A DNA stretch of 64,000 nucleotides, taken from positions 17,752-81,751 of the forward strand of contig OY759745.1 in the NCBI GenBank assembly GCA_963662685.1, given 5' to 3'. Source of the stretch: Bacteroidales bacterium (GTDB lineage Bacteria > Bacteroidota > Bacteroidia > Bacteroidales > VadinHA17). Shown here one piece after another: positions 9,204-29,304 of this stretch. A program made the position numbers and the translations under genes. Below the pieces are notes generated by a model, which had not been told where the DNA came from, did no database searches, and saw only the letters and a program-made list of their open reading frames with translations. Each line of letters opens with the position of its first letter. The first letter of the stretch is position 1.

Positions 9204-9212
9204 AATAGTAAA

Positions 9213-12859: not shown

Positions 12860-13687
12860 TTAATACTTGAGAAATATCGTTGACCGGACCTGATCAAGCG
12901 GGACATCCATATTTGTTATCGATTCCGAATGACCCAGAAAAAAATGGCCACCTGCGCCGAGTTTCCCACATAGCTTGTTTATTACCGCCTCCTGTGTATC
13001 ACGATCAAAATATATCAGCACATTACGACAGAAAATAACATCAAACGGACCCTGAATATTATAATATCCCGACATGAAGTTTAAGCTTTTGAAATCAACT
13101 CTCGACCTGAGTTCAGGGACTATCCTTACAGTTTTCTCCTGCTTATCCTTACTCCGCAGAAAATACTTCTTTTTATAGTATTCTTCGACCTGTGCGATTT
13201 TTTCTTCTGGATATATAGCAACAGTCCCCCTCTGAATCATCCTGTTAGAGATATCTGTTGCCGTAATATGAAAATCAAAATCGCTGCATTTATTTTTAAA
13301 TTCCTGTAAAATCATGGCGATAGTGTATGCCTCCTCACCACTGGAACATCCCGCCGACCATACCCGCATGAATTTCTTACCGTATTCTTTATAAAATACC
13401 GGTAGCAGTTGTTCCGTCAAATAATCAAAATGAACCGGCTCCCTGAAAAAATCAGTTTTGTTAGTTGTGATTATATCCGTCATCAGTACCTTCTCGGCAG
13501 TGCCCTCTCTACTGAACACGAAATCAAGATAATCACTGAAGGAGTGTTTTTGAAGTTCCCTCAAACGGCGTTGTAACCTGCCCTGAAGCATTATCCGTTT
13601 AACATCCGGCATTTTGATCCCCAGTTCTTCCGTAATATATGCCGCCAGTCTTCTAAACTCCTTATCACCTAACTCGATCTGGTTCAT
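12860..13687 (-). CDS. cheR: CheR protein-glutamate O-methyltransferase
   Basis: TDFFREPVHF, VWSAGCSSGEEAYTIAMIL and DVIFCRNVLIYFD. Confidence 0.9.
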   Translation of the reverse strand: MNQIELGDKEFRRLAAYITEELGIKMPDVKRIMLQGRLQRRLRELQKHSFSDYLDFVFSREGTAEKVLMTDIITTNKTDFFREPVHFDYLTEQLLPVFYKEYGKKFMRVWSAGCSSGEEAYTIAMILQEFKNKCSDFDFHITATDISNRMIQRGTVAIYPEEKIAQVEEYYKKKYFLRSKDKQEKTVRIVPELRSRVDFKSLNFMSGYYNIQGPFDVIFCRNVLIYFDRDTQEAVINKLCGKLGAGGHFFLGHSESITNMDVPLDQVRSTIFLKY

Positions 13688-13797: not shown

Positions 13798-15786
13798 TCA
13801 AAATTTCTCATAATCTTCATTAAGAGGGTCATTACCACTAATATTAACGGCACGGCCATGTTTCCTTTTCTGATCCTTTCCGCACACATTCCCATCGTTA
13901 TCCAGCCCAATAATCCTCTGTTTATCATCTGTTGATGCATTGTCTGCCATTTTTTTCCGAAATTCACCCGGAAGGCTGAAAAAAGAGACATTATCAAGAA
14001 GTTTTTCCGACTGTATAGCCAACGCTTCTGAACTGGTAGCGACCTCTTCAGAAGCGGAGGCGTTCTGTTGCGTCACCTGGTTCAGTTGCTGGATCGCACT
14101 GTTAACCTGTTCACTTCCAGAATTCTGTTCAGTACTCGCGGCAGCGATCTCCTGAACCAGTCTTGCCGTCTTTTCGATATCCGGTATTATCGATTCCATG
14201 AGTTCACCGGCCTCCTTTGTCATCTTAAGTGATCTTTTTGAGAGATTATCTATCTCCACCGCGGAAACCTGGCTCCTCTCCGCCAGACGTCTTACCTCGG
14301 TAGCCACTACAGCGAAACCTTTGCCGTGTTCTCCCGCCCTTGCCGCCTCAACGGCGGCATTCAAAGCCAGAATATTTGTTTCACGGGCAATCTCTCCAAT
14401 TATTGATACCTTATTTGCTATCTCTTCAACATTAATCAAGGTATTTCTTGCGGCAGCGGCAACGTTTTTTATCCCGTCAGCGGCTTTAACCGCAATTAAC
14501 CGGGTCTCCTGGGCGTTCTCCATATTCTGCTGAATATTGGCCGCCATCTCTTCCATTGACGATGATATCTCCTCAACTGACGAAGCCTGTTCAGATGCTC
14601 TCTGGCTCATCTCCTGTGAGGTAGAACTTAGTTGCTGACTGGAACCGGACATATTTTCCGCAACCATCTGAAATTCCGAGATAACCCTAGCTACAGAGCT
14701 TGCCATTTCCGAGAAAGATTGCATCAAATCATCATTTTCTGACCGTTTCCGCAAATCAACGGTCAGGTCGCCATGCGCTATCAATCTCGCCTTTTCCGTA
14801 ATCTCATCCAGGGTTTGAATCAACTGGTTCACGTTATTCTTGATCGCGTTAAAATCACCTTTATACTCTTCAATTATTTCTTCGGGAATATCGCCTATCG
14901 AAATCTTTTCAACATAGTTAGCGGATACTTTAAGGGGATTTACCAACGCATCAAGAACATCATTTAACCCGACCGTTATTTCGCGAAACTCAAAATTGGT
15001 AGTTCCCGTGTCAATTCGTGAATCAAGGTTACCGTTCAAAGCATCATCAACCAGCTTCTTAATCTGAAGTACAATGGATTTTATTATACCATTGATATTC
15101 GCAGATATCCATAATCCAACAATTATCGCGAACAAAATCCCGGCTATTATACTAATGATCAAAAATACAGTAACATTTTTCACATCTGAAACGGCGGATA
15201 TACTGGCATTTTCAGCATTACGTACCTGCATTTCTGATATTTTCTGAACATCTTCTTCACAAAGAGCCAAAACCGTACTAACCTCACTATTATAATACAC
15301 AAAAAGCTGGTAATCAAGAGTAATGCACCTAATATCTTCATTATCCAAACCCTCATCCATCATATCAGTTCTTGTATTATAATAATGGGTATATGTCTCC
15401 CCAATTGTCCTCCATGTATTAAGGTTTGAAATGAAAGAATCCCATAAAGCCTGCTCACTGGCATCCTTTTCGAACGTATTAAATTTTTCAATCTGTTCAT
15501 CCATCTCTTTCAGACGGTTCTGAATCCTGTCGGCCATTTCCCTTCTTTCCTGAACGCTATATCCATTGTTTAATAGCGCATATTCATCTGATTTGATATC
15601 TGTTTGCAGAAACTGTATCCTCGAAATAGTCTGCAGTGAGGGAATAGACTTGGACAACATCGAATCCTGGGCATCCATTGAAGTATTCATTCCTTTATAG
15701 CCAACAAAACCAACCAATATGATAATAATTGACAGGAACAAAAAACTGGTATAAAGCTTTATACGTATTGATAAATTATTCAACAT
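13798..15786 (-). CDS. Methyl-accepting chemotaxis protein (four-helix-bundle-type periplasmic sensor, HAMP, MA domain)
   Basis: The hairpin-tip signature is [41 protein letters not shown]. There are two TM segments and HAMP-like regions. The C-terminal tail is ...NEDYEKF. Confidence 0.95.
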
Positions 15787-16369: not shown

Positions 16370-16825
16370 TTATAGAGAAAATGTAATAGGAATCATATAC
16401 CATACAGGGACGGGGACCCCGTCTTTTTTGCCCGGAATAAAGTTGTTCATTGTCTGTATAATCCTCATAGCTTCTTTATCAAGATCAGTATCGACACTTT
16501 TAAGAACACTGACCATTGTCACACTACCTTTAGCGGTTACGCAAAACTTAACAACAACCTTGCCCTGTATTCCTCTCTCCATTGCCCTGACCGGATATTT
16601 AATATTATTGCTGATGTAATCAACCATAGCGGAATTGCCGCCAGGGTACATTGGCATCTCTTCCACTGCTACATACGGTTCTATATCCGCTCCACCAGCA
16701 GCATTGCTCCCAGAGGAATTCTGTCCATTCATCACATTATTGAATAGAATTCCCGAAGTAATAACTAGCACTATGATTCTTAAGAATCGTAGATTTTTTT
16801 CATTGTAATAAAAATGATGTTTCAT
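16370..16825 (-). CDS. TonB C-terminal-domain protein (single TM anchor plus TonB_C)
   Basis: VEEMPMYPGGNSAMVDYISNNIKYPVRAMERGIQGKVVVKFCVTAKGSV...IPGKKDGVPVPVWYMIPITFSL is a TonB_C pattern. I prefer the ATG at 16825 (MKHHFYY...) over the GTG at 16864. Confidence 0.75.
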   Translation of the reverse strand: MKHHFYYNEKNLRFLRIIVLVITSGILFNNVMNGQNSSGSNAAGGADIEPYVAVEEMPMYPGGNSAMVDYISNNIKYPVRAMERGIQGKVVVKFCVTAKGSVTMVSVLKSVDTDLDKEAMRIIQTMNNFIPGKKDGVPVPVWYMIPITFSL

Positions 16826-16966
16826 CAGAATATAATTTAATTTTAATTGACTGAAGGAACCCACATGTCTCTTATCAGACGCATCAGTTCATGCGCGAAA
16901 TCTACATTTGGGTTATATAAAATGGAATTAATTGTTCATAGTTTCAAAAATACCTTTCAGAGAAAA

Positions 16967-18844
16967 CTAAAACCTCTCATAATTAGCGTCATGGGCATCT
17001 TTGTTCATGTTGATGGTAACGCCCCGTTTTGCTTTGTTTGAGGACCCGTTTGGTTTAGAATGTTTTTTATCCGGCAAGTTATTGTTGGCTATATTGACAT
17101 TCGCTCCCATTTTAAGACCATGTCGCTCCATAGAAACCATTTCTGATTTCAGTTTAAAGAAAGAGATCATTTCCAGTAGTTGTTGTGCCTGGCTTGCCAG
17201 TTCTTCTGAACTTGTTGCCATCTCTTCTGAAGCGGCGGCATTTTGCTGGGTAACCTGGTTAAGTTGCTGAATGGCGCTGTTTACCTGGTTAGCGCCGGAG
17301 TTTTGCTCAATACTTGCGGCAGCGATCTCCTGAACAAGCTTAGCCGTTTTTCCGATCTCAGGAGCGATAGCTCCAAGCAGTTTCACTGATTCCTCGGTAG
17401 CATTGACACTATTTTTAGTCAGGTTATCAATTTCAACGGCTGATAACTGGCTTCTTTCCGCAAGTTTCCTCACCTCAGCGGCCACAACCGCGAATCCCTT
17501 TCCGTGCTCTCCGGCCCTTGCCGCTTCAACTGCGGCATTAAGAGCCAGAATATTCGTCTGACGGGCTATTTCTCCAATAATCGACACCTTGTCGGCTATA
17601 TCTCTCATATAGTTCAAAGTCTGGTCAGAAGCCTCTTTTACCTTGCTTATGCCCTCAGACGCATTAAAGGCTATCTTTTCTGTCTGTTGGGCGTTCTCCG
17701 TATTTTGTTGAATATTGGCAGCCATCTCTTCCATTGAAGAAGAAACCTCTTCGGCTGAAGAGGCTTGTTCAGATGCGCCCTGACTGAGCTCTTGTGAAGT
17801 GGAACTCATCTGTTCACTTGAAGCTGAAATATTGTTGGCGGCCGATTGGAATTCAGTAATAATCCTGGCCGTAGATTTAACCATATCGGTCAACGACTGT
17901 AAAAGATGATCATTATCAGAACGCTTTTTAAGATCTACAGTCAGGTCACCAGAGGCGACCATTTTTGCTTTTACCACAATATCGTTCAGAGTATTTATGA
18001 GAAGATTCAAATTACTGATAATTATATTAATATCTCCTTTATACTTATCAGTAATCACAGATGGCATATCACCTATAGAAATCTTTGAAATATAGTCAGC
18101 CGCAAGATCTAACGGTGTAACAAGCGAATCAACGACATTATTAAGGCCCTTTGTTATGCCCCTGAATTCAAAGTTTGTCCTCATAACATCGGCCCTTATT
18201 TTAAGGTTCCCGTCCAGAACACCGTCAACAACATCTTTTATCTGATTGTTTACTGCAGTAATATTGTTTTGAATGGACCTTCCAAGAACAAGACCAAGAA
18301 TTATAGCCAGGGCCACTCCAATTAATATAGCGACAACCGTAGCGTTTCTTGTTACGTTTATCACATGGAGAAGATCATCCTCATATATAGTTGTGGATAC
18401 ATACCACTCGGCCGGCTCGTAATAAGTGAAATGCTGGTATTTTATACGTCCTTCCCATTCATACGTGATCTTTCCTTCACCCATAGCGATCATCTCTTTA
18501 AAAAAGTCCTCGTTAGCTATATTATCGCCCTCACTGGTCGGATGAATTATAAACGTCCCGCCTTTATCTACAACATAGCCATAACCATTCGTATAAAACT
18601 TTTTCTCGTTGAAAATTTCTTTTAAAACTGTGAGGTCACTGTCCCTGTGTATACCAATCTGCAAATCGATCATCTGTTTCATATCGGACACCTGTTCAAA
18701 GAGTCTGTCATCAGAGTCGGATATTACGGATTTCCTTTGATTCCTAATGGAATATAACCCAAAGATTATCAATATTACACAAACAGCGAGACTTAGGGTA
18801 ACACTGAGTTTAGCACCTGTAGTCAGATCATTGATTTTTTTCAT
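16967..18844 (-). CDS. Methyl-accepting chemotaxis protein (single-Cache-like periplasmic sensor, HAMP, MA domain)
   Basis: Cache-like [20 protein letters not shown]. Signalling tip [42 protein letters not shown]-terminal tail ...DANYERF. I prefer the ATG at 18844 (MKKINDL...) over the TTG at 18871. Confidence 0.95.
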
Positions 18845-19061
18845 TTTTACATGCTTAAAAGTTTCAAACAATTATGGTCTTGATATTTAGATTTACTTAA
18901 TCACTGAAAATTAAGACAACAGCATTACCATATCCAGTACCGTATTGGGTTTTATGATCCATCTCTTTCCCGTTTTTCAGCAATATCAAATGTAGTTAAG
19001 AACAAACTCCAGTTTTAGAGAATTGTCACCTGAAATACTTCCAGGTTACACCTGTTTATCT

Positions 19062-19130: not shown

Positions 19131-20207
19131 TTAAACTCCCGACAGTACTAAAGGTATTTTATCCAATGGCAGGATTCTGCAAACAGAATTGAGCTTAATT
19201 GCTTCCTTTGGCATTCCGAAGACAACACAACTTTCCTCGTCCTGGGCGACGGTAAGTGCACCCGCTTCTTTCATCTCAAGTAATCCCCTGGCACCATCAT
19301 CCCCCATTCCTGTCATTATTATGCCTATAGCGTTTGCTCCGGCGAACTGGGCCGCTGATCTGAACAGTACATCAACGGAAGGCCTGTGCCTGTTAACCAG
19401 GGGACCGTCAGTGATCTTAACATAATATCTGGCACCACTTCTTTTAACAAGCATATGCTTGTTTCCCGGAGCGATCAGGGTGTGCCCCCTTAAAATGCTA
19501 TCCCCGTCTTCAGCTTCTTTGACATTGATCCTGCATGACTGGTTCAATCTGTTAGCAAATGATTTGGTAAACATTTCAGGCATGTGCTGGACAATAACGA
19601 TACCAGGAGAATCAGAAGGCAAAGCTTCAAGAAATCGGGCAATAGCCTCTGTTCCTCCTGTTGAAGCGCCAACAACCACGACTTTCTCGGTTGTTTTGAT
19701 CATACTCTGTTTTCTCATGGAAGACAATACTACATCAGCGCTATATTTTGGAGGAACCGTAACGGGAATCTGACCGAAAGCATATTTCAGTTTCTTTTGT
19801 CTGCCTTTTGTCATCGCGGCAGCCCTGACAGCATCGCATAATACGATCTTCGACTCCTCAAAAAATTCCTTTGTGGCAAGTTGCGGTTTTGTTATTATCT
19901 CAACAGCGCCAAGCTCCATAGCTCTCATAGCTGTTTCAGTACCACTGGCTGTAAGACTCGATATTATCACCACCGGAATAGGATGTTGGGTCATAATTTT
20001 TCTGAGAAAAGTAATACCATCCATCCTTGGCATCTCAATATCAAGAGTTATCACGTCAGGTACTTCTTCTTTGATTATATGCGCCGCACGATAAGGATCT
20101 GAGGCTGTATCCAAAACCTCAAGCATAGGGTCAGATATGAATATTTCCTTTAATACCTGGCGTACCAGCGCTGAATCATCAACTATCAGTACTTTGATTT
20201 TCTTCAA
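19131..20207 (-). CDS. cheB: CheB methylesterase, full length (REC + catalytic domain)
   Basis: REC motifs: [29 protein letters not shown]. Catalytic motifs: [30 protein letters not shown]. The start is TTG: an in-frame TAG lies 2 codons upstream, and the next Met would truncate the REC domain. Confidence 0.9.
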
Positions 20208-20225: not shown

Positions 20226-21278
20226 TTATTCCTCCTTAGAAACAACTCCAGTTCCACCTATTATATCACATATTTTGAAAGAAACATTATCTATCTCATC
20301 AACAAGATGGTATGCCGTAAGAAACAGTTTATTACCCTTGGCAAGGGCTTCAGAATCTTTTGAAGAAACGCATTCTATTTTTCCTCCCTTATCAATAAAA
20401 TCAAGGATCTGTCCCAAAGATGACATTATACTTACAAAAAGGTCGTCGTTGTCAGTCACATCATTAATATCGTTCATATTCATCAGCTCGGCGACAACTT
20501 TCCTTGATGTTTTTTCAACAATGGTTTTGGCCTCGAATTCCAAAGCCTCATAAATTTTGTCGTCAAGAGCAAGAACAACGGCTTCAAGCTGAAGCTTCCT
20601 TATTCTTAATATCTTTTTGTACGCATCTATAATGCTAGTCGCGCCATAAGATATGGATTCAAGAATACTGTCTCCTCCAGGTATCTCAATAACCATATAT
20701 TCCTTATCAAGGTATCGTATTTTTGGTTTGATCTCAGATGCGCTGATCAAACAGGAGTAATCCCGTATAATCTTGTCCCATATCCTCGCATATCTCTCTA
20801 TATCACCGATAGAGTTGATACCCGCGCTTCCCTCAAATATCAAAGTCAACAAGGATTTGCCATTATCCGGTTCCTTTTCGTCAACAAACAGCTTTAACAG
20901 GTCAGTATCGGTATGTTTCAACTTGTTGATCTCATCTATCATTATTGTGATCTGCTGTAATAATCCCGCAGGATTAGTCCTGTTGGTCTCAAAAATATGA
21001 ACAAGATTCCTGGCGCCCCTTTCACCAACGACTCCATATTTATCGATTTTAGCCAGCATCCTGAATCGTGAATACAACCAGTCAGCTGACTCGATACCCG
21101 TCAAGTCGTCGATCAATCCTGCTTTAGATTTTTCAATATCAACAATAAGATTTTCACTTCCAGACTTGGATATCATCCGAACCATTTCCAGCAGTCCGTC
21201 AAATTTTGAAACAAGTTGTTTCGATTCTATCTGCCTTTTTATGTGATCAATTAGATCAATGGTCGCTTGTGCCAGCAT
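20226..21278 (-). CDS. Hypothetical soluble protein, unrecognised family (paralog B); between cheD and cheB
   Basis: Paralog of 11739-12767. The ATG at 21278 (MLAQATIDLIDH...) aligns with the paralog A N-terminus (MRIQTTIDLIDH...). The track start at 21323 is a TTG. The gene overlaps the cheD 3' end by 23 nt. Confidence 0.8.
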   Translation of the reverse strand: MLAQATIDLIDHIKRQIESKQLVSKFDGLLEMVRMISKSGSENLIVDIEKSKAGLIDDLTGIESADWLYSRFRMLAKIDKYGVVGERGARNLVHIFETNRTNPAGLLQQITIMIDEINKLKHTDTDLLKLFVDEKEPDNGKSLLTLIFEGSAGINSIGDIERYARIWDKIIRDYSCLISASEIKPKIRYLDKEYMVIEIPGGDSILESISYGATSIIDAYKKILRIRKLQLEAVVLALDDKIYEALEFEAKTIVEKTSRKVVAELMNMNDINDVTDNDDLFVSIMSSLGQILDFIDKGGKIECVSSKDSEALAKGNKLFLTAYHLVDEIDNVSFKICDIIGGTGVVSKEE

Positions 21279-21762
21279 AATATATATTTTGTATCTGTTT
21301 TTCGATATATCTGTGAATAACAACGCCCTTACAAGTATCGAAAGCTATTTTTCTCCCTTGGGCGCCCCCTGTACACGCCCCGGCAATCCTGATATTATAC
21401 TGCTTGAGCGTTTCCATGGCGACTTCAATATTTCTTTCTCCGATGTTAAACTGTGAGGCCATTGTCTGCAGTACTTCTCCTCCTCCAAAAACCTTTGCTA
21501 TTATGTTCCTCCTGTCACATCCAATCTCAAGCATCTTATCTAGCAGTTTTATTATAGCTATGTTTCCAAACTTGGGAGACGCAAGTCCCTGCCCATTCCA
21601 GAGAGGCAGCATATAATGGTTAATTCCGCCATATTCAAGTATTGGATCCCACAAACAAACCGACACGCATGAACCTAATATAGTGGTAACCATGGTCGGC
21701 TTCTTTGAGGCAAACAGTGTCGATGGAAAAAGAAAATGATCTGTATAATCGACCCGTTCCAT
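21256..21762 (-). CDS. cheD: CheD chemoreceptor glutamine deamidase
   Basis: MVTTILGSCVSVCLWDPILEYGGINHYMLP...KVFGGG...IGERNIE, the CheD signature with catalytic Cys/His context. Confidence 0.85.
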   Translation of the reverse strand: MERVDYTDHFLFPSTLFASKKPTMVTTILGSCVSVCLWDPILEYGGINHYMLPLWNGQGLASPKFGNIAIIKLLDKMLEIGCDRRNIIAKVFGGGEVLQTMASQFNIGERNIEVAMETLKQYNIRIAGACTGGAQGRKIAFDTCKGVVIHRYIEKQIQNIYYAGTSDH

Positions 21763-22643
21763 CAGAAAACCTCATTACGTGACGAAATCTCCGAGCCCTC
21801 TTCCCCAAAAAGATCATAGATACTTGTAACGTCCGCAGCTTCAGGGATATATAATCTGAATTCTGACCCCTGTCCGATATGGCTTGTCAACGATATGTTG
21901 CCATCAAGCAGTTCTGTCAGCGACCTGACTATCGCCAATCCGAGACCATGCCCCCTGTTCAGAGAATTTATCCTGTCGTCGACCCTCTTGAACCTGTCAA
22001 AAATCAGCTCTTTATTATCCTCCTCAATACCAATTCCGTCATCCCTTACAGCTACCATTATTCCTTCGCCACATTTTTCCATATTAACACTGACACGCCC
22101 GTTTTCAGTATATTTTACGGCATTACTTATTAGATTGGAGATAATAAGCTTTATTTTTTCTTCATCGATATAAAAAAAACTGTCAGGTAAACCTTTCGCC
22201 AGTACCAGGGAGACGTTCCTGCTGTCCGCTTCATGCCTGAAAGAGTCCATAATATTGTTAATAATCTCTACAATATTAACTTTTGACGCCTCTATATATA
22301 GTTCCCCTGCCTCAATCTTTGCACTGGCAAAAATATTTTTAAGCTGAAAATCAAGGCTGAAAGCTTCATCATAGATCAATCTGATCATATTGTATACTTT
22401 CTCCGGGACTAAACTCTTCATCATCAAGAGGTTTCTCGATAAGCCCAATATTGATGCGAAGGGATTGATTATCTCATTTGTTATGCTGGAAATAAAATGA
22501 GTCTTAAGTGCCTCTGATTCTACTAATTTTTCATTGGCGCTGACAAGCTCCTTTGACAATTCCTGTTGCTCCAAGAGCATATTTTTATACTCGCTGAACC
22601 TGCGTTCAAGTTCGTTCAATAGCTGTTCCTCCGAGATTTTCAT
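21762..22643 (-). CDS. Cytoplasmic histidine-kinase-like protein (coiled coil, DHp, HATPase_c) with the phospho-acceptor His replaced by Asn
   Basis: The H-box region KTHFISSITNEIINPFASILG aligns in register with the canonical [21 protein letters not shown], giving H->N. The CA domain looks intact: N-box NLISNAVKYT, G1 DDGIGI, F IFDRFKRV, G2 GHGLGLAIV. The C-terminus is ...SRNEVF. Confidence 0.8.
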   Translation of the reverse strand: MKISEEQLLNELERRFSEYKNMLLEQQELSKELVSANEKLVESEALKTHFISSITNEIINPFASILGLSRNLLMMKSLVPEKVYNMIRLIYDEAFSLDFQLKNIFASAKIEAGELYIEASKVNIVEIINNIMDSFRHEADSRNVSLVLAKGLPDSFFYIDEEKIKLIISNLISNAVKYTENGRVSVNMEKCGEGIMVAVRDDGIGIEEDNKELIFDRFKRVDDRINSLNRGHGLGLAIVRSLTELLDGNISLTSHIGQGSEFRLYIPEAADVTSIYDLFGEEGSEISSRNEVF

Positions 22644-22673: not shown

Positions 22674-24707
22674 TCATTCTCTATATGAAAACGAACTGAT
22701 TATTTTATTGGGGTCCAGCAATAGGGCAACGGTTCCATCACCCAGAATAGTAGCCCCAGAAATCAGTTCCTGTTGTTTGTACATCAAACCGAGAGTCTTC
22801 AGAACCGCCTGATATTCACCAATAACGTGATCCACTGCCAGTCCAAAAAAAGTATCCCCCTGTCTTATCACTACAACTTCCTCATTAGCAGGAGACTCGG
22901 TTTTGATATTGAACTCTTTCCTAAGATATATGAAAGGTATATGTCCGTCATTGACATAAATAAGATTATTGACCGGGTTTATCAGTTCCTGGTGTTTAAA
23001 CTCCATGCACTTGTTAACAAAATTCAGGGGAATAACAAAAAACGAGTTATCTATACTTACAAGGAGCCCATCAATAATTGAAAGAGTCAATGGAAGTTTT
23101 AATATTATGGTCGTTCCTTTGTCAATTTCGGATTTTATTTCCACTTCCCCCCTGAGTTCGGATATTTTTCTCTTAACCACATCCATACCCACGCCCCTGC
23201 CTGAAATTTTCGTTATGCTTTCGGAAGTAGAAAAACCCGGAAGGAAAATAAAATCCAAAATATCCTTGCCGGCCACATCCTCATCAGAAGAAATAAGGCC
23301 TGAATCCAATGCGCGTTTTTTTATTCTTACCGGATCTATTCCTTTTCCATCGTCGGAGATCTCCATAATAACGTTAGCCCCAGAATAATAAGCTTTCAGT
23401 CTTATTTCTCCACGTTGAGGTTTACCCTTTTCCTTCCTGACTTCAGGGCATTCAATACCATGATCAATACTGTTCCTAATAATATGCATTATAGGGTCCA
23501 CCAATCCTTCTATCATATTTTTGTCCATTTCAGTATCGGTTCCTTCTGTCTGAAAGGCGATATCTTTGTTCATCTCATTTGACAACTCCCTTACCAGGCG
23601 TTGAAAACGGGTAACCATATTTTCAACAGGAATAAGCCTAATGCCAAAAGTATTATCCCTCAACCGGCGGGTGATCTTTTCGATATCCTCAGAAAGCTGC
23701 ATCAGTTCTTTATTATCAATACGCTCTGAAACAAGGGAAAGTCCGGCCTGACGTGTTACCAACTCACTTACAAGATTGATAAGTTCATCCAGCTTATCTG
23801 AAGAAACGCGTATGCTTGATATATTATTTTCTCTGATCGCCCTCTGGACTTTTTCAGTATGCTCCTCTGGTACCGGACCAACTTTATTAGGTTTGCGTCC
23901 CTCCGCGATACCTTCAATATCTGATACCTGTATCTTGTCTGAAGTAACCGCCGCATCGAGAAGCTTAATGAATTCCTCATCAGACAAAAGATCCTTGTCG
24001 CTTATCTTCTTAATCAACAGATTACAATCAAGATCCACAAAAATGAAAACATCCCGTATATCCTTCTCCGACACCTCGGTTGACAGAACAATTACCCAGG
24101 ACACATAACATGAATGGACGTCGAGTTCCGCGAAATCAGGTATTTTCGCAAGTCCCGGAATCACCCTGGATGTTCCTAGAGTTGTCAGTTCCTTAACGGT
24201 AAGTAACGGATTCGTACCATTTTTCAAAATATCTTTTTTCGGTTCAAAGCAGATATAATATGTTGACTTCCCCCCCATGATGGTACCGGATGTTTTTTCA
24301 TTGCTTTCATTTCCTTCATCATTTCCGGTATTTGGGCCCAATAGTCCGGCTATAGACTTCAACAACATCTCATGATTATCCAAAGTCTCAGGGGACAACT
24401 TATCATCCTCACTAAGCAGAACTTTAATATGGTCAATCGATTTAAATGTAATGTCCATAAAATGGTCGGTTACAATATCCTGACCACTTCTTATCCTGTC
24501 AAAGGCGGATTCCATCTGGTGGGTAAAAAAATCAATCTTATCAAAACCAAACATAGCGCTGGCGCCCTTAAGTGAATGCATTGCCCTGAAGATAACTTCA
24601 ATATGCTCTTCATTAGTAGGATCTTCGCTAAGTTTAAGAGAGGATTTTTCTAGATCCAGAATAAGATCAAGAGCCTCTTCAATAAATTTGTACTTGAATT
24701 GTTCCAT
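22674..24707 (-). CDS. cheA: CheA histidine kinase
   Basis: Hpt H-box AMHSLKGASAMFGF. Kinase motifs: HIIRNSIDHGIE, DDGKGID, GRGVGMDVV. A C-terminal CheW-like domain is present. Confidence 0.95.
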   Translation of the reverse strand: MEQFKYKFIEEALDLILDLEKSSLKLSEDPTNEEHIEVIFRAMHSLKGASAMFGFDKIDFFTHQMESAFDRIRSGQDIVTDHFMDITFKSIDHIKVLLSEDDKLSPETLDNHEMLLKSIAGLLGPNTGNDEGNESNEKTSGTIMGGKSTYYICFEPKKDILKNGTNPLLTVKELTTLGTSRVIPGLAKIPDFAELDVHSCYVSWVIVLSTEVSEKDIRDVFIFVDLDCNLLIKKISDKDLLSDEEFIKLLDAAVTSDKIQVSDIEGIAEGRKPNKVGPVPEEHTEKVQRAIRENNISSIRVSSDKLDELINLVSELVTRQAGLSLVSERIDNKELMQLSEDIEKITRRLRDNTFGIRLIPVENMVTRFQRLVRELSNEMNKDIAFQTEGTDTEMDKNMIEGLVDPIMHIIRNSIDHGIECPEVRKEKGKPQRGEIRLKAYYSGANVIMEISDDGKGIDPVRIKKRALDSGLISSDEDVAGKDILDFIFLPGFSTSESITKISGRGVGMDVVKRKISELRGEVEIKSEIDKGTTIILKLPLTLSIIDGLLVSIDNSFFVIPLNFVNKCMEFKHQELINPVNNLIYVNDGHIPFIYLRKEFNIKTESPANEEVVVIRQGDTFFGLAVDHVIGEYQAVLKTLGLMYKQQELISGATILGDGTVALLLDPNKIISSFSYRE

Positions 24708-24814: not shown

Positions 24815-25180
24815 TCAGTTAAGCACCTTGTAAATAGCGCTTATAAGCTTGGCGGGTACAAAAGGTTTAATGATCCACCCAGTAGCACCGGCATCCCTGG
24901 CTTCAAGTTTCTTTTCCACCTGAGATTCGGTGGTAAGGAACAAAATAGGAATCAGCTTATAGTTCTCGTTATTTCTAACTGCCTTAATCAGCTCAATACC
25001 ATTCATAACTGGCATGTGTAAATCAGTTATAATAAGATCAATCTTATCGCCGTTAAGGAATTTAAGAGCGTCGTGTCCGTTAATCCCCACTTTTACCTTG
25101 AACCCCTCGTTCTCTAGAGTAAAAGAGACCACTTCTCTTATACTCTCTGAATCATCTACGATTAAAATAGTTCGTTCCAT
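24815..25180 (-). CDS. cheY: CheY single-domain response regulator
   Basis: ILIVDDSE, IITDLHMPVMNG, LFLTTES and WIIKPF: all receiver signature residues are present. Confidence 0.9.
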   Translation of the reverse strand: MERTILIVDDSESIREVVSFTLENEGFKVKVGINGHDALKFLNGDKIDLIITDLHMPVMNGIELIKAVRNNENYKLIPILFLTTESQVEKKLEARDAGATGWIIKPFVPAKLISAIYKVLN

Positions 25181-25198: not shown

Positions 25199-25525
25199 TT
25201 ATTGCCTAATGTTTATCATGTCCCCAAATCCGGTATTACACATAAGATCAACCACATAAATTTCATCATCGCAATTAATCAACAACGATTGCCCCATATC
25301 TGCCAACTTTTTTCGATATGAGTAAAGCACCTGTATGCTGGTCAGGTCATATGAATCTATATTTCTAAGGTCAATTACGACATTGCTCCCATCCGGGTTC
25401 AACGATTCAAGGGCATGTTTCAGATTAATTATTTCCTTTACTGCGATATCGCCCTCAAGTTTAATATGATAAAGGTTATCGCTTTCATTTGTACCCGATT
25501 GTATTTTGAATCCTGTATTACTCAT
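25199..25525 (-). CDS. STAS-domain protein (anti-sigma-antagonist-like)
   Basis: The 108-aa ORF has the pattern IKLEGDIAVKEI...VVIDLRNIDSYDLTSIQVLYSYRKKL. The Ser in IDS sits at the position phosphorylated in SpoIIAA/RsbV-type proteins. Confidence 0.7.
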   Translation of the reverse strand: MSNTGFKIQSGTNESDNLYHIKLEGDIAVKEIINLKHALESLNPDGSNVVIDLRNIDSYDLTSIQVLYSYRKKLADMGQSLLINCDDEIYVVDLMCNTGFGDMINIRQ

Positions 25526-25537: not shown

Positions 25538-27322
25538 TTAAAACAGCTCTATATCATAATCATCCGTATTATCCTTCGCGGAAATGCTATCGGTGAAACC
25601 ATCGTTTATAACCTGATCATGAACAATCCTTTCGCTAGCTACCGTATAAAACACTTCCATCTCTTTGAGATTCTTCTCTTTCAGACTTTTACAACTACTT
25701 TCCCCATCTTTTTTCAACCGATAGTTAATCATATCTAACTTGCCAATAATATTAGCCAGAAGTTTTTCGAATAATTCATTATAATCGGCCTGGTTCAATA
25801 TGTTCTTCAGACGATCCATAACGTCTTTCTTGATGCTTCCATTCTCAACTATAACTGCATCCATATTTTTGCCTTCAACATCAAGCTGATCAAGTACTTT
25901 ACTGACTTTGACCATGACTTTTATCTGTTCTTCTTCAAGAGAGGTCCTAAAACCCGAATTATCGAACTTAACCTGGAATGCTTCCGATAATCCTCTAAAC
26001 TCTGACAATTCCTTCTCCATTTCAGAATTTTTTTCGAAAATATCTCCGATCAATGATGCTATTTGAACCACTATATTGGGCTTTTCTGCAGCATTATTCC
26101 TTGAAAAAACACTTATAGGTATTCCCGGTTCAAGATTTTTCAAAGGCCTAGTCAATGATTTATTCGCTTTATCGCAAACCTTATCGACCAAACCCCTAAT
26201 ACTAAGCAAGTCAGCATTAAATATATTCGAATTGTATTCATCAAGAACCATAAGGAACCTGTCGAGCCGACCTTTCACGACATTTAATAGAGTTGTCCCG
26301 GAATCGGATTCATCCAGAGAAAATTCATGCGAAACCGTTGATACCATAGTAATATCACCAGCAATCTTCTGGAAATTCCGGGAAATGACATCAAGGGCAT
26401 TCTGATACTCCTTTGAGATAAGAATCAGTTGAGCCGACTGGAGTCCGGAAAGGTCGGCTATAAGCGACAATATATCATCATCATCGCTGATAATTATGTC
26501 GCCGCCATGTTCATCAAGCTTAGCCACCAGTTTCGCCGTGATTTTCTCGTGCGACTCATGGATATGCTCTATTTTCTGCCTTATTATATCATGATACTGC
26601 AGGTGCTTGATAATATTGGCAATAGAATCTGTCGTACTTTTCAACTTTTCCCTGATTTCTGGAACATACATCCTTGATTCCATCTTTTTCTTTTTTATCA
26701 ATGAAATAGACGATTTCAGTTCTTCAAAAAAAACCGCATTTATGGCAATACATTTTTGTGAATGCGACCTTACGGCATCGTTCAGAGTTTCCAGTTTTTT
26801 TCTGACAATAACAGTATGCTCATCGAGTACCGTCAAACAGGCAAGAATACCGTCAACATACTTTTCCCATCTGTTTATTTCACCCAAAGCAATAACCGAC
26901 AGCTCCTCGTTTCTTGAAATGACTTTATAATTTGAGAACAGAAATTTCAGTGTCAGCATATCCTGCTTCATATTTCTTATCAGCAACAAAATACTATCAG
27001 CCTTAGCGTTAAGCTTTGACTCTGTCATAAGATTTACATCCAGTTCATTCTCGGTGCCAGATCTGAAATCAACATATTCATCAAATATGTCGTACAATTC
27101 GGATGAAAAAGAGTAATCACCGTTATCCGCTATCGAATCAAATATATGTGTCGCATTGGACGTAACTGTGTTATTCTTTTTAGAATAGTCTTTCAGAAAA
27201 CTATTTAAATGCATAAACACCTGCGATGAACTGTCATATAGTTCACGGATTATCAAGTCAATATCATGAAAGACTCCAAGAAGCTCTCCAATTTTAATAT
27301 ACCTGTCGTCCTGTTTCAACAT
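25538..27322 (-). CDS. Hypothetical 594-aa helical protein with an HDxxxQ motif and an acidic C-terminal tail
   Basis: The ORF has no TM helix or signal peptide. The central segment is IIKHLQYHDIIRQKIEHIHESHEKI and the C-terminus is ...KDNTDDYDIELF. It sits 12 nt upstream of the STAS gene. Confidence 0.8.
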   Translation of the reverse strand: MLKQDDRYIKIGELLGVFHDIDLIIRELYDSSSQVFMHLNSFLKDYSKKNNTVTSNATHIFDSIADNGDYSFSSELYDIFDEYVDFRSGTENELDVNLMTESKLNAKADSILLLIRNMKQDMLTLKFLFSNYKVISRNEELSVIALGEINRWEKYVDGILACLTVLDEHTVIVRKKLETLNDAVRSHSQKCIAINAVFFEELKSSISLIKKKKMESRMYVPEIREKLKSTTDSIANIIKHLQYHDIIRQKIEHIHESHEKITAKLVAKLDEHGGDIIISDDDDILSLIADLSGLQSAQLILISKEYQNALDVISRNFQKIAGDITMVSTVSHEFSLDESDSGTTLLNVVKGRLDRFLMVLDEYNSNIFNADLLSIRGLVDKVCDKANKSLTRPLKNLEPGIPISVFSRNNAAEKPNIVVQIASLIGDIFEKNSEMEKELSEFRGLSEAFQVKFDNSGFRTSLEEEQIKVMVKVSKVLDQLDVEGKNMDAVIVENGSIKKDVMDRLKNILNQADYNELFEKLLANIIGKLDMINYRLKKDGESSCKSLKEKNLKEMEVFYTVASERIVHDQVINDGFTDSISAKDNTDDYDIELF

Positions 27323-27339: not shown

Positions 27340-29304
27340 CTAAAAGAGATCTACCGATATCTGTTGGGCGAAAATCGTGAATGTCTCATTGTTTCCTACC
27401 TTCGCCCTTGTTAATGTGACCAGCATGTCATAATCCCTGCCGTCTTCACTGACCCAGCTTACCTCAGTCCTTACACCCAACTCCCTTTGTTCTCCGTTTA
27501 TTCCCGAATATGCGGTATATGAACCGTTCTTCTGTTCGAGTTTAAGCGGAATGATATCCTCTATCATTCTGCCCATGATGGTACTGCGCTGAATGCCCCA
27601 GGTCTCTTCGGCAGTTTTATTGAAATATTCTATCTTGCCTGTATGGTCAAAGCTTATCACACTATCAACACACCCCTCAAGAATAGCGATATTTTTTGCC
27701 TTTTCCGTCTCTATATCAATGATCTTTTTCTTAAGTCCGGTACTCGCCTCTTCTAATTTTTCGCTCAGGTTCTGTTTAATATCTTCAAGCTCACGAGTAT
27801 ATACCTGAAGTTTATCTCCCTGCATCCTGAGTTCCTCTGCCTGTCTCTTCGTCTCCAGTTCAACGTTCTTTTTCTCAGTAATATCAGTAGCCAGGGCAAT
27901 CACCTTATATGGTATACCATCCTTATTCAACGCTGGTGTATAAGACGCATTCAGCCATATCTCACGACCGGTTCTGGTCACTCTCTTGAAATCGCCACTT
28001 TGAAGCTTTCCAGTGACCAACTGTTTCCAGAATTCGTTATAAAATTCTATTGGTTCATTGGATTTGTCCGCGAATATCCTGTCTGTCTGGTTTACTATCT
28101 CTTCAATGGAATACCCCATCATGTCAAGAAACTTATTGTTGGCGTCAATTATCCTTCCCGACATATCGAATTCAACAGTAGCGATGGTATTGTTTATGGC
28201 AGTGAAAATACCGATTCTCTCAACTTCCCGCTGCTGCATCTCCTCCTGTGTAGCGTTCATCTCCTCCATGCTCTGACGCAACTCTTCCTCCTGTGTACGT
28301 AGCTCCTCGGTCAGCTTTTGGGAGTCCTGAAGCAACTTCTTTGTTTGCTTGTTGATGTTAGTCCGTGAGATGGTTGACGCGACAATCTCCGCCAGTCTCT
28401 CTACGAACTCTATTTCGAATGGTTCAAATTGTCTGAAAGAGGCAAACTCCATAACCCCAAAAAGCTCCTCGTTAAATAGTAACGGAACTATCAAAATGCT
28501 TGTAGGATTGGCATCTCCGAGCCCTGAAGTAATTTTTATAAAGCTATCAGGAACATCGATAAGATAGATCGTACCCTTCTCTATAGCAGCCTGTCCTATC
28601 AACCCTTCACCAATCTTAATTTTTTTGGAGATATATTTTTTTCTGTTCCATGCATAAACAGAAACCATCTCAAGAAAGGGGTCGTCCTTATTATCGTTAT
28701 TAAAAAGATACATTGCCCCCTGATTTACGGCAAGGTATTTGATCAGATCCGACAGAAACCTATCAAACAAGACTTTAAGATCGTCAACATTATCCCTCAA
28801 TATGGCTCCAAACCTGGCAATACCTTCTGTTGACCATTGTGCCCGGGCATCTTCTGTCACAAGCTTGTGGAGTTTATCCCTCATACCCTTAATTGAGTAT
28901 CCCAACTTATCATCTTCACTCAATACAACATATTCTATATTGAAATTTCCGTCGCCAATCTTTTCCAGAAAATCGGCCTGTTCAAACTGATTCTTAACGA
29001 TCAAGTTGATATATTGAGAGATATTGCCAAACTCATCCTTGCTTTCAAGTTTTATCTTGGCGTCAAGATCGCCTACCGAGATCATCCGCAACACTCTCTC
29101 TATCTCCTTGACAGGAATATAAATGTATCTGTGTATAATTCTGTATACAAGGTACAATGCGATCATCCATATTGCCAGCACTATTATTAAAGACGAAACC
29201 TGTCCGTAAATTGCCGGCAGGGAGATATTTCTAAGAACGAACACAACACCACTGATAATAATAACCAGTAATAATGCCAATATTAGATTGATCTTCGATC
29301 GCAT
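27340..29304 (-). CDS. Membrane sensor: 2 TM, HAMP, GAF, coiled coil, PAS, PAS, with no recognisable output domain
   Basis: HAMP: PVKEIERVLRMISVGDLDAKI. GAF: GQAAIEKGTIYLIDVPDSFIKITSGLGDANPTSILIVPLL...VMEFASFRQF. Two PAS-like segments follow. The protein ends right after the second PAS (...QQISVDLF). Confidence 0.8.
   Translation of the reverse strand: MRSKINLILALLLVIIISGVVFVLRNISLPAIYGQVSSLIIVLAIWMIALYLVYRIIHRYIYIPVKEIERVLRMISVGDLDAKIKLESKDEFGNISQYINLIVKNQFEQADFLEKIGDGNFNIEYVVLSEDDKLGYSIKGMRDKLHKLVTEDARAQWSTEGIARFGAILRDNVDDLKVLFDRFLSDLIKYLAVNQGAMYLFNNDNKDDPFLEMVSVYAWNRKKYISKKIKIGEGLIGQAAIEKGTIYLIDVPDSFIKITSGLGDANPTSILIVPLLFNEELFGVMEFASFRQFEPFEIEFVERLAEIVASTISRTNINKQTKKLLQDSQKLTEELRTQEEELRQSMEEMNATQEEMQQREVERIGIFTAINNTIATVEFDMSGRIIDANNKFLDMMGYSIEEIVNQTDRIFADKSNEPIEFYNEFWKQLVTGKLQSGDFKRVTRTGREIWLNASYTPALNKDGIPYKVIALATDITEKKNVELETKRQAEELRMQGDKLQVYTRELEDIKQNLSEKLEEASTGLKKKIIDIETEKAKNIAILEGCVDSVISFDHTGKIEYFNKTAEETWGIQRSTIMGRMIEDIIPLKLEQKNGSYTAYSGINGEQRELGVRTEVSWVSEDGRDYDMLVTLTRAKVGNNETFTIFAQQISVDLF

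Follow-up and report, generated by a model that had tools for sequence, protein, structure and literature searches.

Organization of the locus

The window, which is the whole stretch of DNA that was analysed, covers 64,000 nucleotides of contig OY759745.1 from a Bacteroidales bacterium and carries a chemosensory gene cluster whose features are listed in Table 1. The cluster contains the gene for a 293-aa His-less HisKA/HATPase_c protein, hereafter protein X. The end of cheA (22674) lies 30 nt upstream of the X gene, and the X stop and the cheD start overlap by one base (21762, TGATG on the minus strand), exactly as the original prediction had described. A 99%-identical called protein was found on a 1.64-Mb contig, with cheA and cheD likewise as neighbours.

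Table 1 Coordinates of protein X, its parts and the other genes of the chemosensory cluster
Feature	Position	Strand	Remark
Protein X (293-aa His-less HisKA/HATPase_c protein)	21762..22643	minus	Whole ORF including stop, ATG start
X, N-terminal coiled-coil helix (aa 5-46)	22506..22631	minus	Runs into DHp helix 1
X, remodelled H-box (aa 47-68)	22440..22505	minus	K-T-H49-F-I-S-S-I-T-N56-E57-I-I-N60-P61-F
X, DHp helix 2 (aa 80-113)	22305..22406	minus	
X, CA (HATPase_c) domain (aa 120-267)	21843..22286	minus	
X, disordered acidic tail (aa 270-293)	21765..21836	minus	
X, example of tail peptide			DGNEFLFDTDEIF; receptor counterpart D-E-Y-E-K-F
cheD (168 aa)	21256..21762	minus	Catalytic GSC...NH present; constant neighbour of X
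cheA (Hpt, H-kinase_dim, HATPase_c, CheW domains)	22674..24707	minus	Upstream of X in the window
cheY (121-aa single receiver)	24815..25180	minus	Candidate docking partner of X
cheB (REC and methylesterase)	19131..20207	minus	Candidate docking partner of X
cheR	12860..13687	minus	Adjoins X in most relatives, displaced here
MCP (Cache, HAMP, MCPsignal)	16967..18871	minus	Ends in pentapeptide NYERF
MCP (4HB, HAMP, MCPsignal)	13798..15786	minus	Ends in pentapeptide DYEKF
594-aa helical protein (HDxxxQ protein)	25538..27322	minus	Ends in E-L-F-COOH
HAMP-GAF-PAS protein	27340..29304	minus	Ends in V-D-L-F-COOH; conserved cluster member

Results showed that protein X is a soluble protein made up of an N-terminal coiled coil, a HisKA-like DHp domain, a HATPase_c domain and a disordered acidic tail. 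Pfam gave HATPase_c (95.5 bits, E 3e-27, residues 160-269) and a HisKA match that stayed under the cutoff (20.5 against 26.9 bits, E 5e-4, residues 47-113), and a CheC/CheX fold was not found; the match to HATPase_c_2, the family of the anti-sigma Ser kinases, was weak. The AlphaFold2 model (pLDDT 80.5) contained helices 5-74 and 80-112, which form a two-helix hairpin, the CA domain at residues 120-267 and a disordered tail at residues 277-293. No sensor, PAS or transmembrane domain was found by Pfam or in the model, in agreement with the predicted lack of a sensor domain. The closest superpositions of the model were with HK853-RR468 complexes (TM 0.83-0.86, rmsd 2.2-2.8 Å), and DivL (4q20) was also among the top structural matches with a TM of 0.84. 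Conserved residues of the coiled-coil helix were L8, E11, R15, L33, N37, K39, L40, S43 and E44.

A STAS protein is also present in the window cluster. The beta-subdomain loop of the window CheR has the length of that of Salmonella CheR, a receptor-pentapeptide binder. The family of the 594-aa protein has the invariant motif LQ[YF]xD245IIxQ249K..H253, in which D245 and Q249 are invariant and the His of HDxxxQ varies (H, Q, E). The 594-aa protein was considered as a relative of CheZ and rejected (hhalign of its family profile with E. coli CheZ, probability 0.13, E 0.44), and the profile gave only generic coiled-coil and MCP-like matches against the PDB; the likeness of its D-x-x-x-Q to CheZ may serve as a motif-level lead.

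Replacement of the phospho-acceptor and conservation of the family

Thermotoga HK853 (2c2a, 3dge) aligned with residues 38-268 of protein X in phmmer with an E of 4e-30 and about 29% identity. The X H-box, LKTHFISSITNEIINPFASI, aligned with the HK853 H-box without gaps, with Asn56 opposite His260, the phospho-acceptor of HK853, and His49 opposite a Glu, so the H-box register and the exchange of His for Asn given in the original prediction were confirmed. The Asn56 codon of the window gene is AAT (22476-22478). The number of database homologs was 2026 at E <= 1e-10, and the family was present in at least 456 species representatives, mostly Bacteroidota. Cultured organisms that carry X include Anaerophaga thermohalophila DSM 12881, Breznakibacter xylanolyticus DSM 6779, Perlabentimonas gracilis and Carboxylicivirga linearis. 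A full-text literature search found no paper describing the family.

In pattern-free protein searches, Asn stood at position 56 of 120/120 close homologs, 93/94 diverse members (the query and 93 representatives) had it as well, and the long kinases outside the X family in the same match list had His in 57/57; the proposed check of orthologs thus found no His at this position. The Asn56 codons of 81 distinct X genes were AAT (44) and AAC (37). No CAY codon was used, though His is one base change away, and this counts for Asn56 being fixed. The 80 loci behind these codons were fetched by a genome scan with peptide patterns, one of which ends in Asn, so the loci are no proof of Asn invariance and the claim rests on the pattern-free searches. 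Asn56 is therefore no strain mutation; it is a fixed state of the whole family, and with an invariant Asn in place of the phospho-acceptor, X is without the canonical site of autophosphorylation.

The rest of the H-box was also conserved, with E57 kept in 91/94 and N60 in 92/94 diverse members, and P61 invariant or nearly so. The phosphatase motif of HisKA proteins is E/D-x-x-T/N, and CheX uses ExxN (PMC3510030). Both the acidic residue at His+1 and the Thr/Asn at His+4 are present in X, where E57-x-x-N60 is a putative phosphatase-type dyad that has been retained. Position 49 was His throughout the close homologs (120/120) and the 81 distinct X genes (CAT 55, CAC 26), and across the 94 diverse members it was His in 56 (60%), Asn in 24, Gln in 8, Asp in 2 and other residues once each. 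The 38 members without His49 keep N56, E57, N60 and the ATP-binding boxes equally strictly. S52 was Ala in 7 members and S43 was Ala in 14, and no Ser, Thr, Tyr or His acceptor conserved across the family was found on helix 1 in the X alignments.

The ATP-binding boxes were all present (N170/N174, D201xG203xG205, R217-F218 and G231xG233xG235-L236). N170, N174, G203, R217, F218, G231, G233, G235 and L236 were invariant in a 42-sequence alignment and conserved at 97% or above in the 94 diverse members, and D201 and G205 were conserved at 90% or above, so the N, G1, F and G2 boxes that had been called intact are indeed almost invariant across the family. On DHp helix 2, E93, Q100, N103, E111 and G113 were family-invariant. 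The conservation indicates strong purifying selection on the remainder of the H-box (E57, N60, P61), on the helix 2 polar residues (E93, Q100, N103) and on the ATP site.

Gene order and association with CheD

The gene directly downstream of X was cheD in about 77/81 loci from distinct species, which are essentially all loci that reach far enough past X. The gap between the two genes was typically 9-13 nt, with several overlaps. The position of X between cheA and cheD holds for the window but is not the family norm; the usual order is cheR-X-cheD-cheB, and the window has a local rearrangement. Among very divergent members, cheD came next in 3/4 checked; for one of these pairs the 8 kb upstream contained no further che gene, and its contig stops soon after cheD. 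Divergent loci had the order HD-GYP, DnaJ, X, cheD in one case (L085), cheR-cheB-X-cheD in another (L089), and X followed by cheD in a third (L090). Some loci consisted of cheR-X-cheD-cheB or of X-cheD alone, with no cheA or cheY in the 8-10 kb of flank read, and one divergent X-cheD pair had no single-domain receiver or cheB nearby. No receiver gene was constant beside X, and the STAS protein and the 594-aa protein were missing from many X loci.

Mirror-tree analysis of 68 loci gave partial correlations with X of 0.40 for CheD, 0.24 for CheR and 0.10 for CheB, values for which there is no valid significance test. The catalytic Cys of CheD was kept in 77/77 X-linked cases. When X and CheD were concatenated and searched against 5.8 billion proteins, only X homologs on their own were recovered (coverage <=66%), and no X-CheD fusion was found. 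The constant genomic partner of X is CheD, not CheY, and no other che gene is as tightly tied to CheD as X. Adjacency, translational coupling and the mirror-tree value are indirect evidence for a physical binding of X to CheD. No CheC, CheX or CheZ Pfam match was found in the window cluster or in the loci with precomputed Pfam annotations. The CheC-binding signature, Met101-Phe102 of B. subtilis CheD, was sought in the X-linked CheDs and found absent, with [VI][IL] in its place. These [VI][IL] positions are conserved and hydrophobic.

C-terminal tail

The tail of the window protein reads ...SIYDLF...RNEVF-COOH, and its terminal E-x-F is kept in the family. Most X members end in [DE]-x-Phe-COOH, and the receptors and two other cluster proteins have it too. 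The terminal residue was Phe in 197/211 members. At position -4, 164/211 members had Asp, Glu, Asn or Gly, and only 3/211 had an aromatic residue. The CheR/CheB pentapeptide tether is x-[FWYH]-x-x-[FWYH]-COOH, and McpA, with Val at pentapeptide position 2, shows no CheR binding (PMC7184735). Compared with this rule, the X tail has the C-terminal aromatic residue and lacks the aromatic residue at position 2, and the cluster MCPs agree with the rule (D-[DE]-Y-E-K-F).

Proposed function of protein X

Judged from its fixed Asn, its spread over hundreds of species and its place next to cheD, protein X looks like an accessory protein of chemosensory pathways and not like a broken kinase. The explanation that is tentatively favoured, at somewhat less than an even chance, sees in X a module that is dead as a kinase and coupled to CheD, and that would dock a phosphorylated receiver and probably dephosphorylate it through E57-x-x-N60 in a CheC-like manner. 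X would then belong to the HisKA superfamily as a soluble dimer without kinase activity and be the partner of the deamidase CheD in the adaptation branch. Its DHp four-helix bundle would still dock the receiver (CheY or the CheB REC domain) in its phosphorylated form; E57-x-x-N60 would speed receiver dephosphorylation with the Glu/Asn geometry of CheC and CheX, and nucleotide on the CA domain would stabilise the conformation that is competent as a phosphatase. By binding CheD, X would make the availability or activity of CheD at the receptors depend on receiver phosphorylation, and the tail would tether X to another cluster protein. X would in effect be a CheC analogue on a histidine-kinase scaffold. 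In known systems CheC is bound by CheD, more strongly in the presence of CheY-P, and is believed to regulate CheD at the receptors (PMC3513319). The earlier idea of a pseudo-kinase that reads CheY-P overlaps with the favoured explanation and is a live and reasonable one.

A phosphatase role is supported by N60, since Thr/Asn at His+4 of HisKA kinases is required for phosphatase activity only and loss of the His costs little (PMC3510030). The half-life of the CrdS substrate was 0.7 min with the wild type, 2.6 min with H371A and 47.6 min with N375A (PMC3510030), and NtrB H139N serves as a phosphatase-only enzyme (bioRxiv 10.1101/122606). The favoured explanation also draws on the superposition of the model on HK853-RR468 complexes, the constant cheD next to X, the mirror-tree values and the lack of CheC, CheX and CheZ matches. 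Several points argue against it. There is no constant receiver gene beside X, and the 594-aa protein, with its invariant D-x-x-x-Q, is the other candidate phosphatase in the cluster. E57 is near-invariant, yet the equivalent residue of CrdS is required for kinase activity only (PMC3510030), and the conservation of the ATP site is stricter than the role of a nucleotide cofactor obviously needs. The CheC-like part is weakened by the X-linked CheDs, which are without the Met-Phe pair of CheDs from CheC-containing species, and the coupling of X to CheD by the lack of a natural fusion among the 5.8 billion proteins.

Alternative explanations

An unlikely alternative that shares the docking step is a non-catalytic pseudo-kinase of the DivL type, whose DHp domain would bind the phosphorylated receiver without hydrolysis and signal allosterically to CheD, CheA or the receptors. 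The logic of DivL is alike, with the His replaced, the receiver-docking surface kept and neither kinase nor phosphatase activity (PMC4211667), its structure superposes closely on the X model, and the input of X, which has no sensor domain, must come from a protein partner. However, DivL binds ATP weakly and tolerates Y550F and Y550H, whereas X has all ATP-binding residues and a fixed Asn, and the near-invariant N60 and E57 suggest chemistry beyond docking. X is also without the PAS domains that add to phospho-specific binding in DivL (PMC4211667).

Conservation of the N, G1, F and G2 boxes and of the kinase-type Glu at His+1 as in real kinases, even with no His nearby, would fit an ATP-dependent phosphotransferase acting on Ser, Thr or Tyr of a partner (CheD, STAS, CheB) or on the His of a separate protein (CheA-Hpt, the 594-aa protein). 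The weak HATPase_c_2 match and the STAS protein of the cluster point the same way. This activity is nevertheless considered quite improbable, as helix 1 offers no family-wide acceptor, many X loci are without the STAS and 594-aa proteins, and the His of HDxxxQ is variable. The last two of these points leave the original suggestion, that the CA domain phosphorylates the HDxxxQ protein in trans, unsupported.

Only a small chance is given to X being a substrate or decoy of CheD, in which an amide-rich face (N53, N56, N60, Q100, N103) would mimic the Gln/Glu sites of receptors, so that CheD is sequestered or deamidates X and thereby switches it. CheD, with its catalytic Cys, is the sole constant partner of X, and at the height of the former active site the invariant positions that set X apart hold Asn and Gln. 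Receptor modification sites follow the consensus [AS]xx[QE][QE]xx[AS] with the spacing i, i+3, i+4, i+7. N53-x-x-N56-E57-x-x-N60 of X has this spacing, but inspection by eye found no match to the consensus in X; CheD is known for deamidation of glutamine, not asparagine, and the conservation of the ATP site is left unaccounted for.

A slim chance is left for X and CheD as a receptor-free two-protein switch, in which CheD would sit on the amide-lined former active site (N53, N56, N60, Q100, N103). CheD would either be trapped on it, as if on a receptor mimic that cannot be cleaved, or turn Asn56 or Gln100 to acid, and the acid would license an ATP-dependent reaction of the intact catalytic domain. 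If true, this would link a deamidase and a GHKL ATPase in a new way and be a new mechanism of adaptation in place of CheC.

It is very improbable that X is a true histidine kinase with its acceptor shifted two helical turns up helix 1 to His49, the His of KTHF. His49 and position 56 are seven residues apart and face the same side of the helix, neither the ATP site nor E57 is impaired, and H49 is fixed in the close homologs and in the X genes from the loci with both His codons in use. As a family-wide acceptor it was ruled out by the variation across the 94 members, of which the 38 without His49 keep the other residues, and the alternation of H, N and Q fits hydrogen bonding and not an acceptor role. 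That Asn56 is a strain-specific mutation, a sequencing error or part of a decaying pseudogene can practically be dismissed, given that independent assemblies carry this Asn in hundreds of sequences and with both synonymous codons, that the ORF is intact, and that the domains and the operon position are conserved.

Significance and comparison with known systems

The chemosensory auxiliaries CheC, CheD, CheX, CheV and CheZ have been defined in few model phyla, and what annotation pipelines call a "sensor histidine kinase" is here a distinct and strongly conserved family without the acceptor His, which inflates histidine-kinase counts and inferred kinase-regulator pairings in the genomes that carry it. 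If X is a CheD-coupled phosphatase or sensor of phosphorylated receivers, the function of CheC would have been reinvented on a histidine-kinase scaffold. X would also be a natural phosphatase-only HisKA protein for separating kinase from phosphatase chemistry, and a part of the adaptation machinery of Bacteroidota, for whose chemosensory clusters no output is known.

Like HK853 and other class I HisKA kinases, X has a DHp hairpin and a CA domain with the N, G1, F and G2 boxes, and its residues at His+1 (Glu), His+4 (Asn) and His+5 (Pro) are shared as well. It differs from HK853 in having Asn for the acceptor His, one of His, Asn or Gln for the Glu at -7, and Ile, Asn or Val for the Arg at +3; X has no sensor or transmembrane part and carries an extra acidic E-x-F tail. 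Caulobacter DivL and X share a His-less HisKA/CA core, a kept receiver-docking surface and the turning of an output into an input. In DivL the acceptor position is Tyr, where Phe or His is tolerated, ATP is bound weakly, and the protein is membrane-anchored, contains PAS domains and acts in the cell cycle. In X the Asn is strictly fixed and the ATP site fully conserved, PAS domains are absent, and the protein is coupled to CheD. DivL (E 8e-21) matched X no better than ordinary kinases did (HK853, E 4e-30), so X is of independent origin.

CheC, CheX and FliY have in common with X the helix Glu-x-x-Asn, a genetic coupling to cheD and the adaptation branch, but their fold is unrelated and the X-linked CheD is without the Met-Phe signature. 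The full active-site pattern of this phosphatase family is D/S-x3-E-x2-N-x22-P; this pattern is only partly matched in X, where the Pro follows directly after the Asn. NtrB H139N and CrdS H371A carry the same type of substitution as X (His to Asn in NtrB is identical) and have lost the kinase and kept the phosphatase. They are laboratory mutants of bifunctional sensors, whereas the substitution in X is natural, ancient and fixed, with an H-box that has been further remodelled.

The X-bearing clusters are F7-like by gene order, with the skeleton order and a partner-switch module nearby. The ancestral F7 clusters (V. cholerae cluster III, P. aeruginosa Che2) have in common with them the STAS-cheY-cheA-cheW-MCP-cheR-cheD-cheB skeleton, a STAS/Ser-phosphatase (partner-switch) module and receptors with C-terminal pentapeptides. 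In the published F7 order nothing lies between cheR and cheD (PMC7184735), and relative to this order X is an insertion between the two genes.

The X protein and its gene cluster

The gene for the His-less protein X belongs to a chemosensory cluster that is complete within the window and lies on its minus strand. Pfam gave a strong HATPase_c match (95.5 bits, residues 160-269) and a weak HisKA match over residues 47-113, whose 20.5 bits fall short of the cutoff of 26.9, while NCBIfam returned only generic partial sensor-kinase matches, all far under their cutoffs, and neither database holds an X-specific model. Residues 38-268 aligned to the Thermotoga HisKA kinase HK853 (phmmer, E 4e-30). The H-box, the DHp motif around the acceptor His, aligned without gaps, with LKTHFISSITNEIINPFASI opposite a 20-residue HK853 stretch, so that Asn56 stands where HK853 has its phospho-acceptor, His260, and His49 where it has a Glu. 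The AlphaFold2 model, built on 42 family sequences (mean pLDDT 80.5), predicted a long helix over residues 5-74 that is followed by a return helix (80-112) and an alpha/beta CA domain (120-267); confidence was low for the ATP lid, and the tail (277-293) was disordered. Its closest structures were complexes of HK853 with the receiver RR468 (TM 0.83-0.86, rmsd 2.2-2.8 A), and DivL, the Caulobacter Tyr-for-His pseudo-kinase, was also among the best matches. The stop of X overlaps the start of cheD by one base (TGATG) and cheA ends 30 nt upstream of X. The original prediction of a sensorless kinase paralog between cheA and cheD, with Asn in H-box register, intact ATPase boxes, an N-terminal coiled coil and this overlap, was correct in every element.

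Features of the chemosensory cluster and its neighbours in the window
Feature	Position	Strand	Place	C-terminal [DE]-x-Phe
LuxR-type (REC+GerE) regulator	32456-33127	minus	upstream of cluster	
LuxR-type (REC+GerE) regulator	31100-31798	minus	upstream of cluster	
HAMP-GAF-PAS protein (654 aa)	27340-29304	minus	cluster, 1st transcribed	yes
594-aa helical protein	25538-27322	minus	2nd	yes
STAS	25199-25525	minus	3rd	
cheY	24815-25180	minus	4th	
cheA	22674-24707	minus	5th	
X (293 aa)	21762-22643	minus	6th	yes
cheD	21256-21762	minus	7th	
365-aa protein, no detectable family	20226-21323	minus	8th	
cheB	19131-20207	minus	9th	
MCP	16967-18871	minus	10th	yes
TonB_C protein	16370-16864	minus	11th	
cheW	15789-16319	minus	12th	
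MCP	13798-15786	minus	13th	yes
cheR	12860-13687	minus	14th	
cheR2	10409-11242	minus	second module	
cheB2, REC-less	9790-10509	minus	second module	
GAF	9213-9806	minus	second module	
GAF-PAS-PAS-SpoIIE phosphatase	6594-9203	minus	second module	
DUF6272 protein	6040-6597	minus	second module	
DUF6272 protein	5452-6027	minus	second module	
SiaC	5051-5434	minus	second module	
ABC transporter, fused	1886-4963	minus	second module	

The longest ORF after cheD, of 365 aa, shares bases with the 3' end of that gene (the gene called in the source record encodes 350 aa), showed no detectable family, and was found at this place only in the closer relatives L001, L021, L047 and L076 (L numbers denote loci of X relatives). 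The TonB C-terminal-domain gene lies inside the cluster between MCP and cheW; L087 also has one, together with an OprB porin gene between MCP and cheR. The two LuxR-type regulators just upstream are possibly transcriptional outputs of the cluster or unrelated neighbours. The second module downstream (1886-11242) looks like a SiaABC-type partner switch with a methylation pair and was kept in L001, L002, L046, L047, L060, L066 and others.

Conservation of Asn56

Among 5.8 billion proteins, a word-indexed search detected 2026 X homologs with E <= 1e-10. Identity to X was 46-99% for the best 120, which were 278-306 aa long apart from one fragment of 208 aa. In an index-free HMMER search, run on 1.84 billion cluster representatives, the best 150 matches fell into two clean groups: 93 short proteins of 265-305 aa with 35-46% identity to X and 57 long multi-domain kinases (26-33% identity). 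All 57 long kinases had His at the aligned position, within ordinary SHE[LF]RTP motifs. Whether Asn is fixed in orthologs, a question raised with the original prediction, was answered by Asn in 120/120 close homologs and in 92 of the 93 short representatives, the remaining one having Ser. The codon in 81 distinct X genes was AAT (44) or AAC (37) and never CAY, a His codon being one base change away; since one of the patterns used to retrieve the loci contained Asn56, these genes illustrate codon usage only. An accidental Asn56 is extremely improbable.

The family consensus was S-E-x-[LM]-K-[ST]-x-F-[LI]-S-N-I-x-N-E-I-x-N-P-[FL]. Phe(-6), Asn(-3), Glu(+1) and Pro(+5) of canonical HisKA were retained, whereas Glu(-7) was replaced by His, Asn or Gln, His(0) by Asn, Arg(+3) by Ile, Asn or Val, and Thr/Asn(+4) was always Asn. 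A 42-sequence alignment (33-72% identity to the window protein) showed invariant residues in helix 1 (N37, L40, E44, F50, N56, E57, N60, P61), helix 2 (E93, Q100, N103, A108, E111, G113) and the ATP-binding boxes (D160, N170, N174, G203, R217, F218, G231, G233, G235, L236). The canonical acceptor is not available to X, and the former active site and ATP pocket are under strong selection.

No His column was conserved across the family (H49 60%, H232 67%, H137 31%). A shift of the acceptor to H49 is very unlikely: the residue was invariant in close homologs and all loci, with both His codons used, but in the wider family it was His in 56 members and Asn (24), Gln (8) or others elsewhere. The 38 members without H49 kept N56, E57, N60, Q100, N103 and all ATP boxes as strictly as the 56 with it; H49 is therefore not a family-wide relocated acceptor, and ATP-site conservation is independent of any nearby His.

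Distribution, gene order and the CheD partner

A GTDB scan (one genome per species) confirmed X relatives in at least 456 species. The best 80 loci were nearly all from Bacteroidales or Marinilabiliales, cultured carriers among them being Anaerophaga thermohalophila, Breznakibacter xylanolyticus, Perlabentimonas gracilis, Carboxylicivirga linearis and Thermophagus. When the loci were annotated by searching with the Che proteins of the window, the order cheR-X-cheD-cheB appeared in essentially all of them, the usual full operon being (REC)-594aa-(STAS)-cheY-cheA-cheW-(MCP)-cheR-X-cheD-cheB-GAF/PAS, of which the window is a rearranged variant. This skeleton matches the F7 'stage 1' cluster (STAS, cheY, cheA, cheW, cheW, aer2, cheR, cheD, cheB, mcpA, STAS, Ser phosphatase; PMC7184735), which has nothing between cheR and cheD, whereas X is inserted there.

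Minimal loci (MCP-cheR-X-cheD-cheB: L003, L010, L011, L019, L020, L022, L030, L031) had no cheA, cheW or cheY within 10 kb; they kept the X tail, and the MCP of L003, L010 and L011 had no C-terminal pentapeptide. Large PAS-rich hybrid histidine kinases with receivers (about 600-1800 aa, several lineages) adjoined cheR-X-cheD in L004/L018, L006-L008, L035, L037 and L051. The hybrid-kinase neighbourhoods suggest that the cheR-X-cheD module can connect to conventional phosphorelays, instead of CheA or alongside it.

Directly downstream of X lay cheD even in very divergent members, the one exception among those examined being the member with Ser at position 56. L085 (8001-9364; also L086) had a 35%-identical X and cheD with overlapping stop and start, in the order HD-GYP-like (tandem-HD) protein, DnaJ-domain membrane protein, X, cheD; there was no other che gene within 8 kb upstream, the contig ended 1.3 kb past cheD, neighbouring protein sequences looked high-GC, and this X lacked the terminal E-x-F. 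L089 showed cheR-cheB-X-cheD and L090, a 1.5-kb contig, X-cheD alone. The gap to cheD was mostly 9-13 nt, with several overlaps. X-linked CheD carried the catalytic Gly-Ser-Cys in 77/77 and the downstream His in every sequence inspected. A crude mirror-tree of 68 loci gave partial r of pairwise distances of 0.40 for X-CheD, 0.24 for X-CheR and 0.10 for X-CheB (reference pair CheR-CheB, 0.61), which is no more than suggestive of X-CheD coupling. A concatenated query found no natural X-CheD fusion in 5.8 billion proteins. X is co-inherited with CheD and probably co-translated with it.

The C-terminal motif

X ended in Phe in 197/211 family members, with Glu at -3 in 170/211; the typical ending is an acidic stretch, G-N-E-F-[LF]-F-D and [DEN]-[DEN]-E-[IVL]-F-COOH. 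Within the loci, [DE]-x-[FWY]-COOH was found in X (75/82), MCPs (46/55, as canonical pentapeptides D-[DE]-Y-E-[KN]-F), the 594-aa protein (32/34, as D-N-L-E-L-F) and nearly all 625-776-aa GAF-PAS proteins (as I-S-V-D-L-F, an ending also present in the three closest relatives of the window's 654-aa protein). It was absent from CheA, CheW, CheR, CheB, CheD and receivers including CheY, and from background ORFs (0/384). Five of 51 window ORFs had it, all within the che cluster. Its sharing by four unrelated families suggests a system-wide C-terminal docking code wider than the receptor pentapeptide.

The X tail has no aromatic residue at pentapeptide position 2, where Val blocks CheR binding in P. 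aeruginosa McpA (PMC7184735); a standard CheR-tethering role is accordingly improbable for this tail. The window CheR best matched the pentapeptide-binding Salmonella CheR (1bc5, E 1e-47), and its beta-subdomain loop aligned without a gap, in keeping with real receptor tethering.

Possible function of X

In HisKA kinases, His+4 (Thr or Asn) is needed for phosphatase activity only and His itself is minor, substrate half-life with CrdS being 0.7 min for wild type, 2.6 min for H371A and 47.6 min for N375A (PMC3510030). NtrB H139N is a phosphatase-only enzyme (bioRxiv 10.1101/122606). Among dedicated phosphatases, the residues used are Glu-x-x-Asn in CheX and CheC and Asp-x-x-x-Gln in CheZ (PMC3510030), and Bacillus CheD binds CheC, the more strongly with CheY-P (PMC3513319). 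X retains the CheC/CheX pair exactly as E57-x-x-N60, its predicted fold resembles the HK853-RR468 complex, and no CheC, CheX or CheZ domain occurred in the X clusters examined. On this basis a CheC-like role is tentatively ranked first, in which X would dock CheY~P or CheB~P, probably hydrolyse it, and thereby control CheD. Against this role, no receiver gene is constant beside X, the residue matching the invariant E57 is kinase-specific in CrdS (PMC3510030), the ATP site is conserved beyond cofactor need, and X-linked CheD has [VI][IL] where CheD of CheC-containing species has Met-Phe. The 594-aa protein is also a second candidate phosphatase: all-helical, without a Pfam family and kept just upstream of STAS/cheY, it carries L-Q-[YF]-x-D245-I-I-x-Q249-K-x-x-H253, which resembles the CheZ/NarX D-x-x-x-Q motif, though hhalign against CheZ was not significant.

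A non-catalytic sensor like DivL is unlikely. DivL has no kinase or phosphatase activity and binds ATP poorly (PMC4211667), and X differs from it in its fixed Asn and intact ATP site. It is quite unlikely that X is a kinase whose acceptor is a residue other than His or lies in trans. The original prediction had named the 594-aa HDxxxQ protein as one possible acceptor in trans, and this was not supported: D245, Q249 and H253 are invariant, but the 'HD' His varies among relatives (H, Q or E), and the protein is missing from many X loci. A small probability is given to X as a CheD substrate or decoy through its amide-rich face (N53/N56/N60/Q100/N103).

Comparison with known systems

X family members are labelled 'sensor histidine kinase' or 'HAMP domain-containing histidine kinase' in databases, and full-text searches of the literature gave no description of the family. 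A figure legend in PMC9239204 gives the gene orders of Campylobacterota chemosensory classes and lists there, without a name, a 'gene encoding histidine kinase', which may or may not be a member. Both pseudo-histidine kinases and phosphatase-only kinases have precedents; the X family is a new form of these, with a fixed Asn, an intact ATP site, obligate deamidase pairing and a terminal E-x-F tail.
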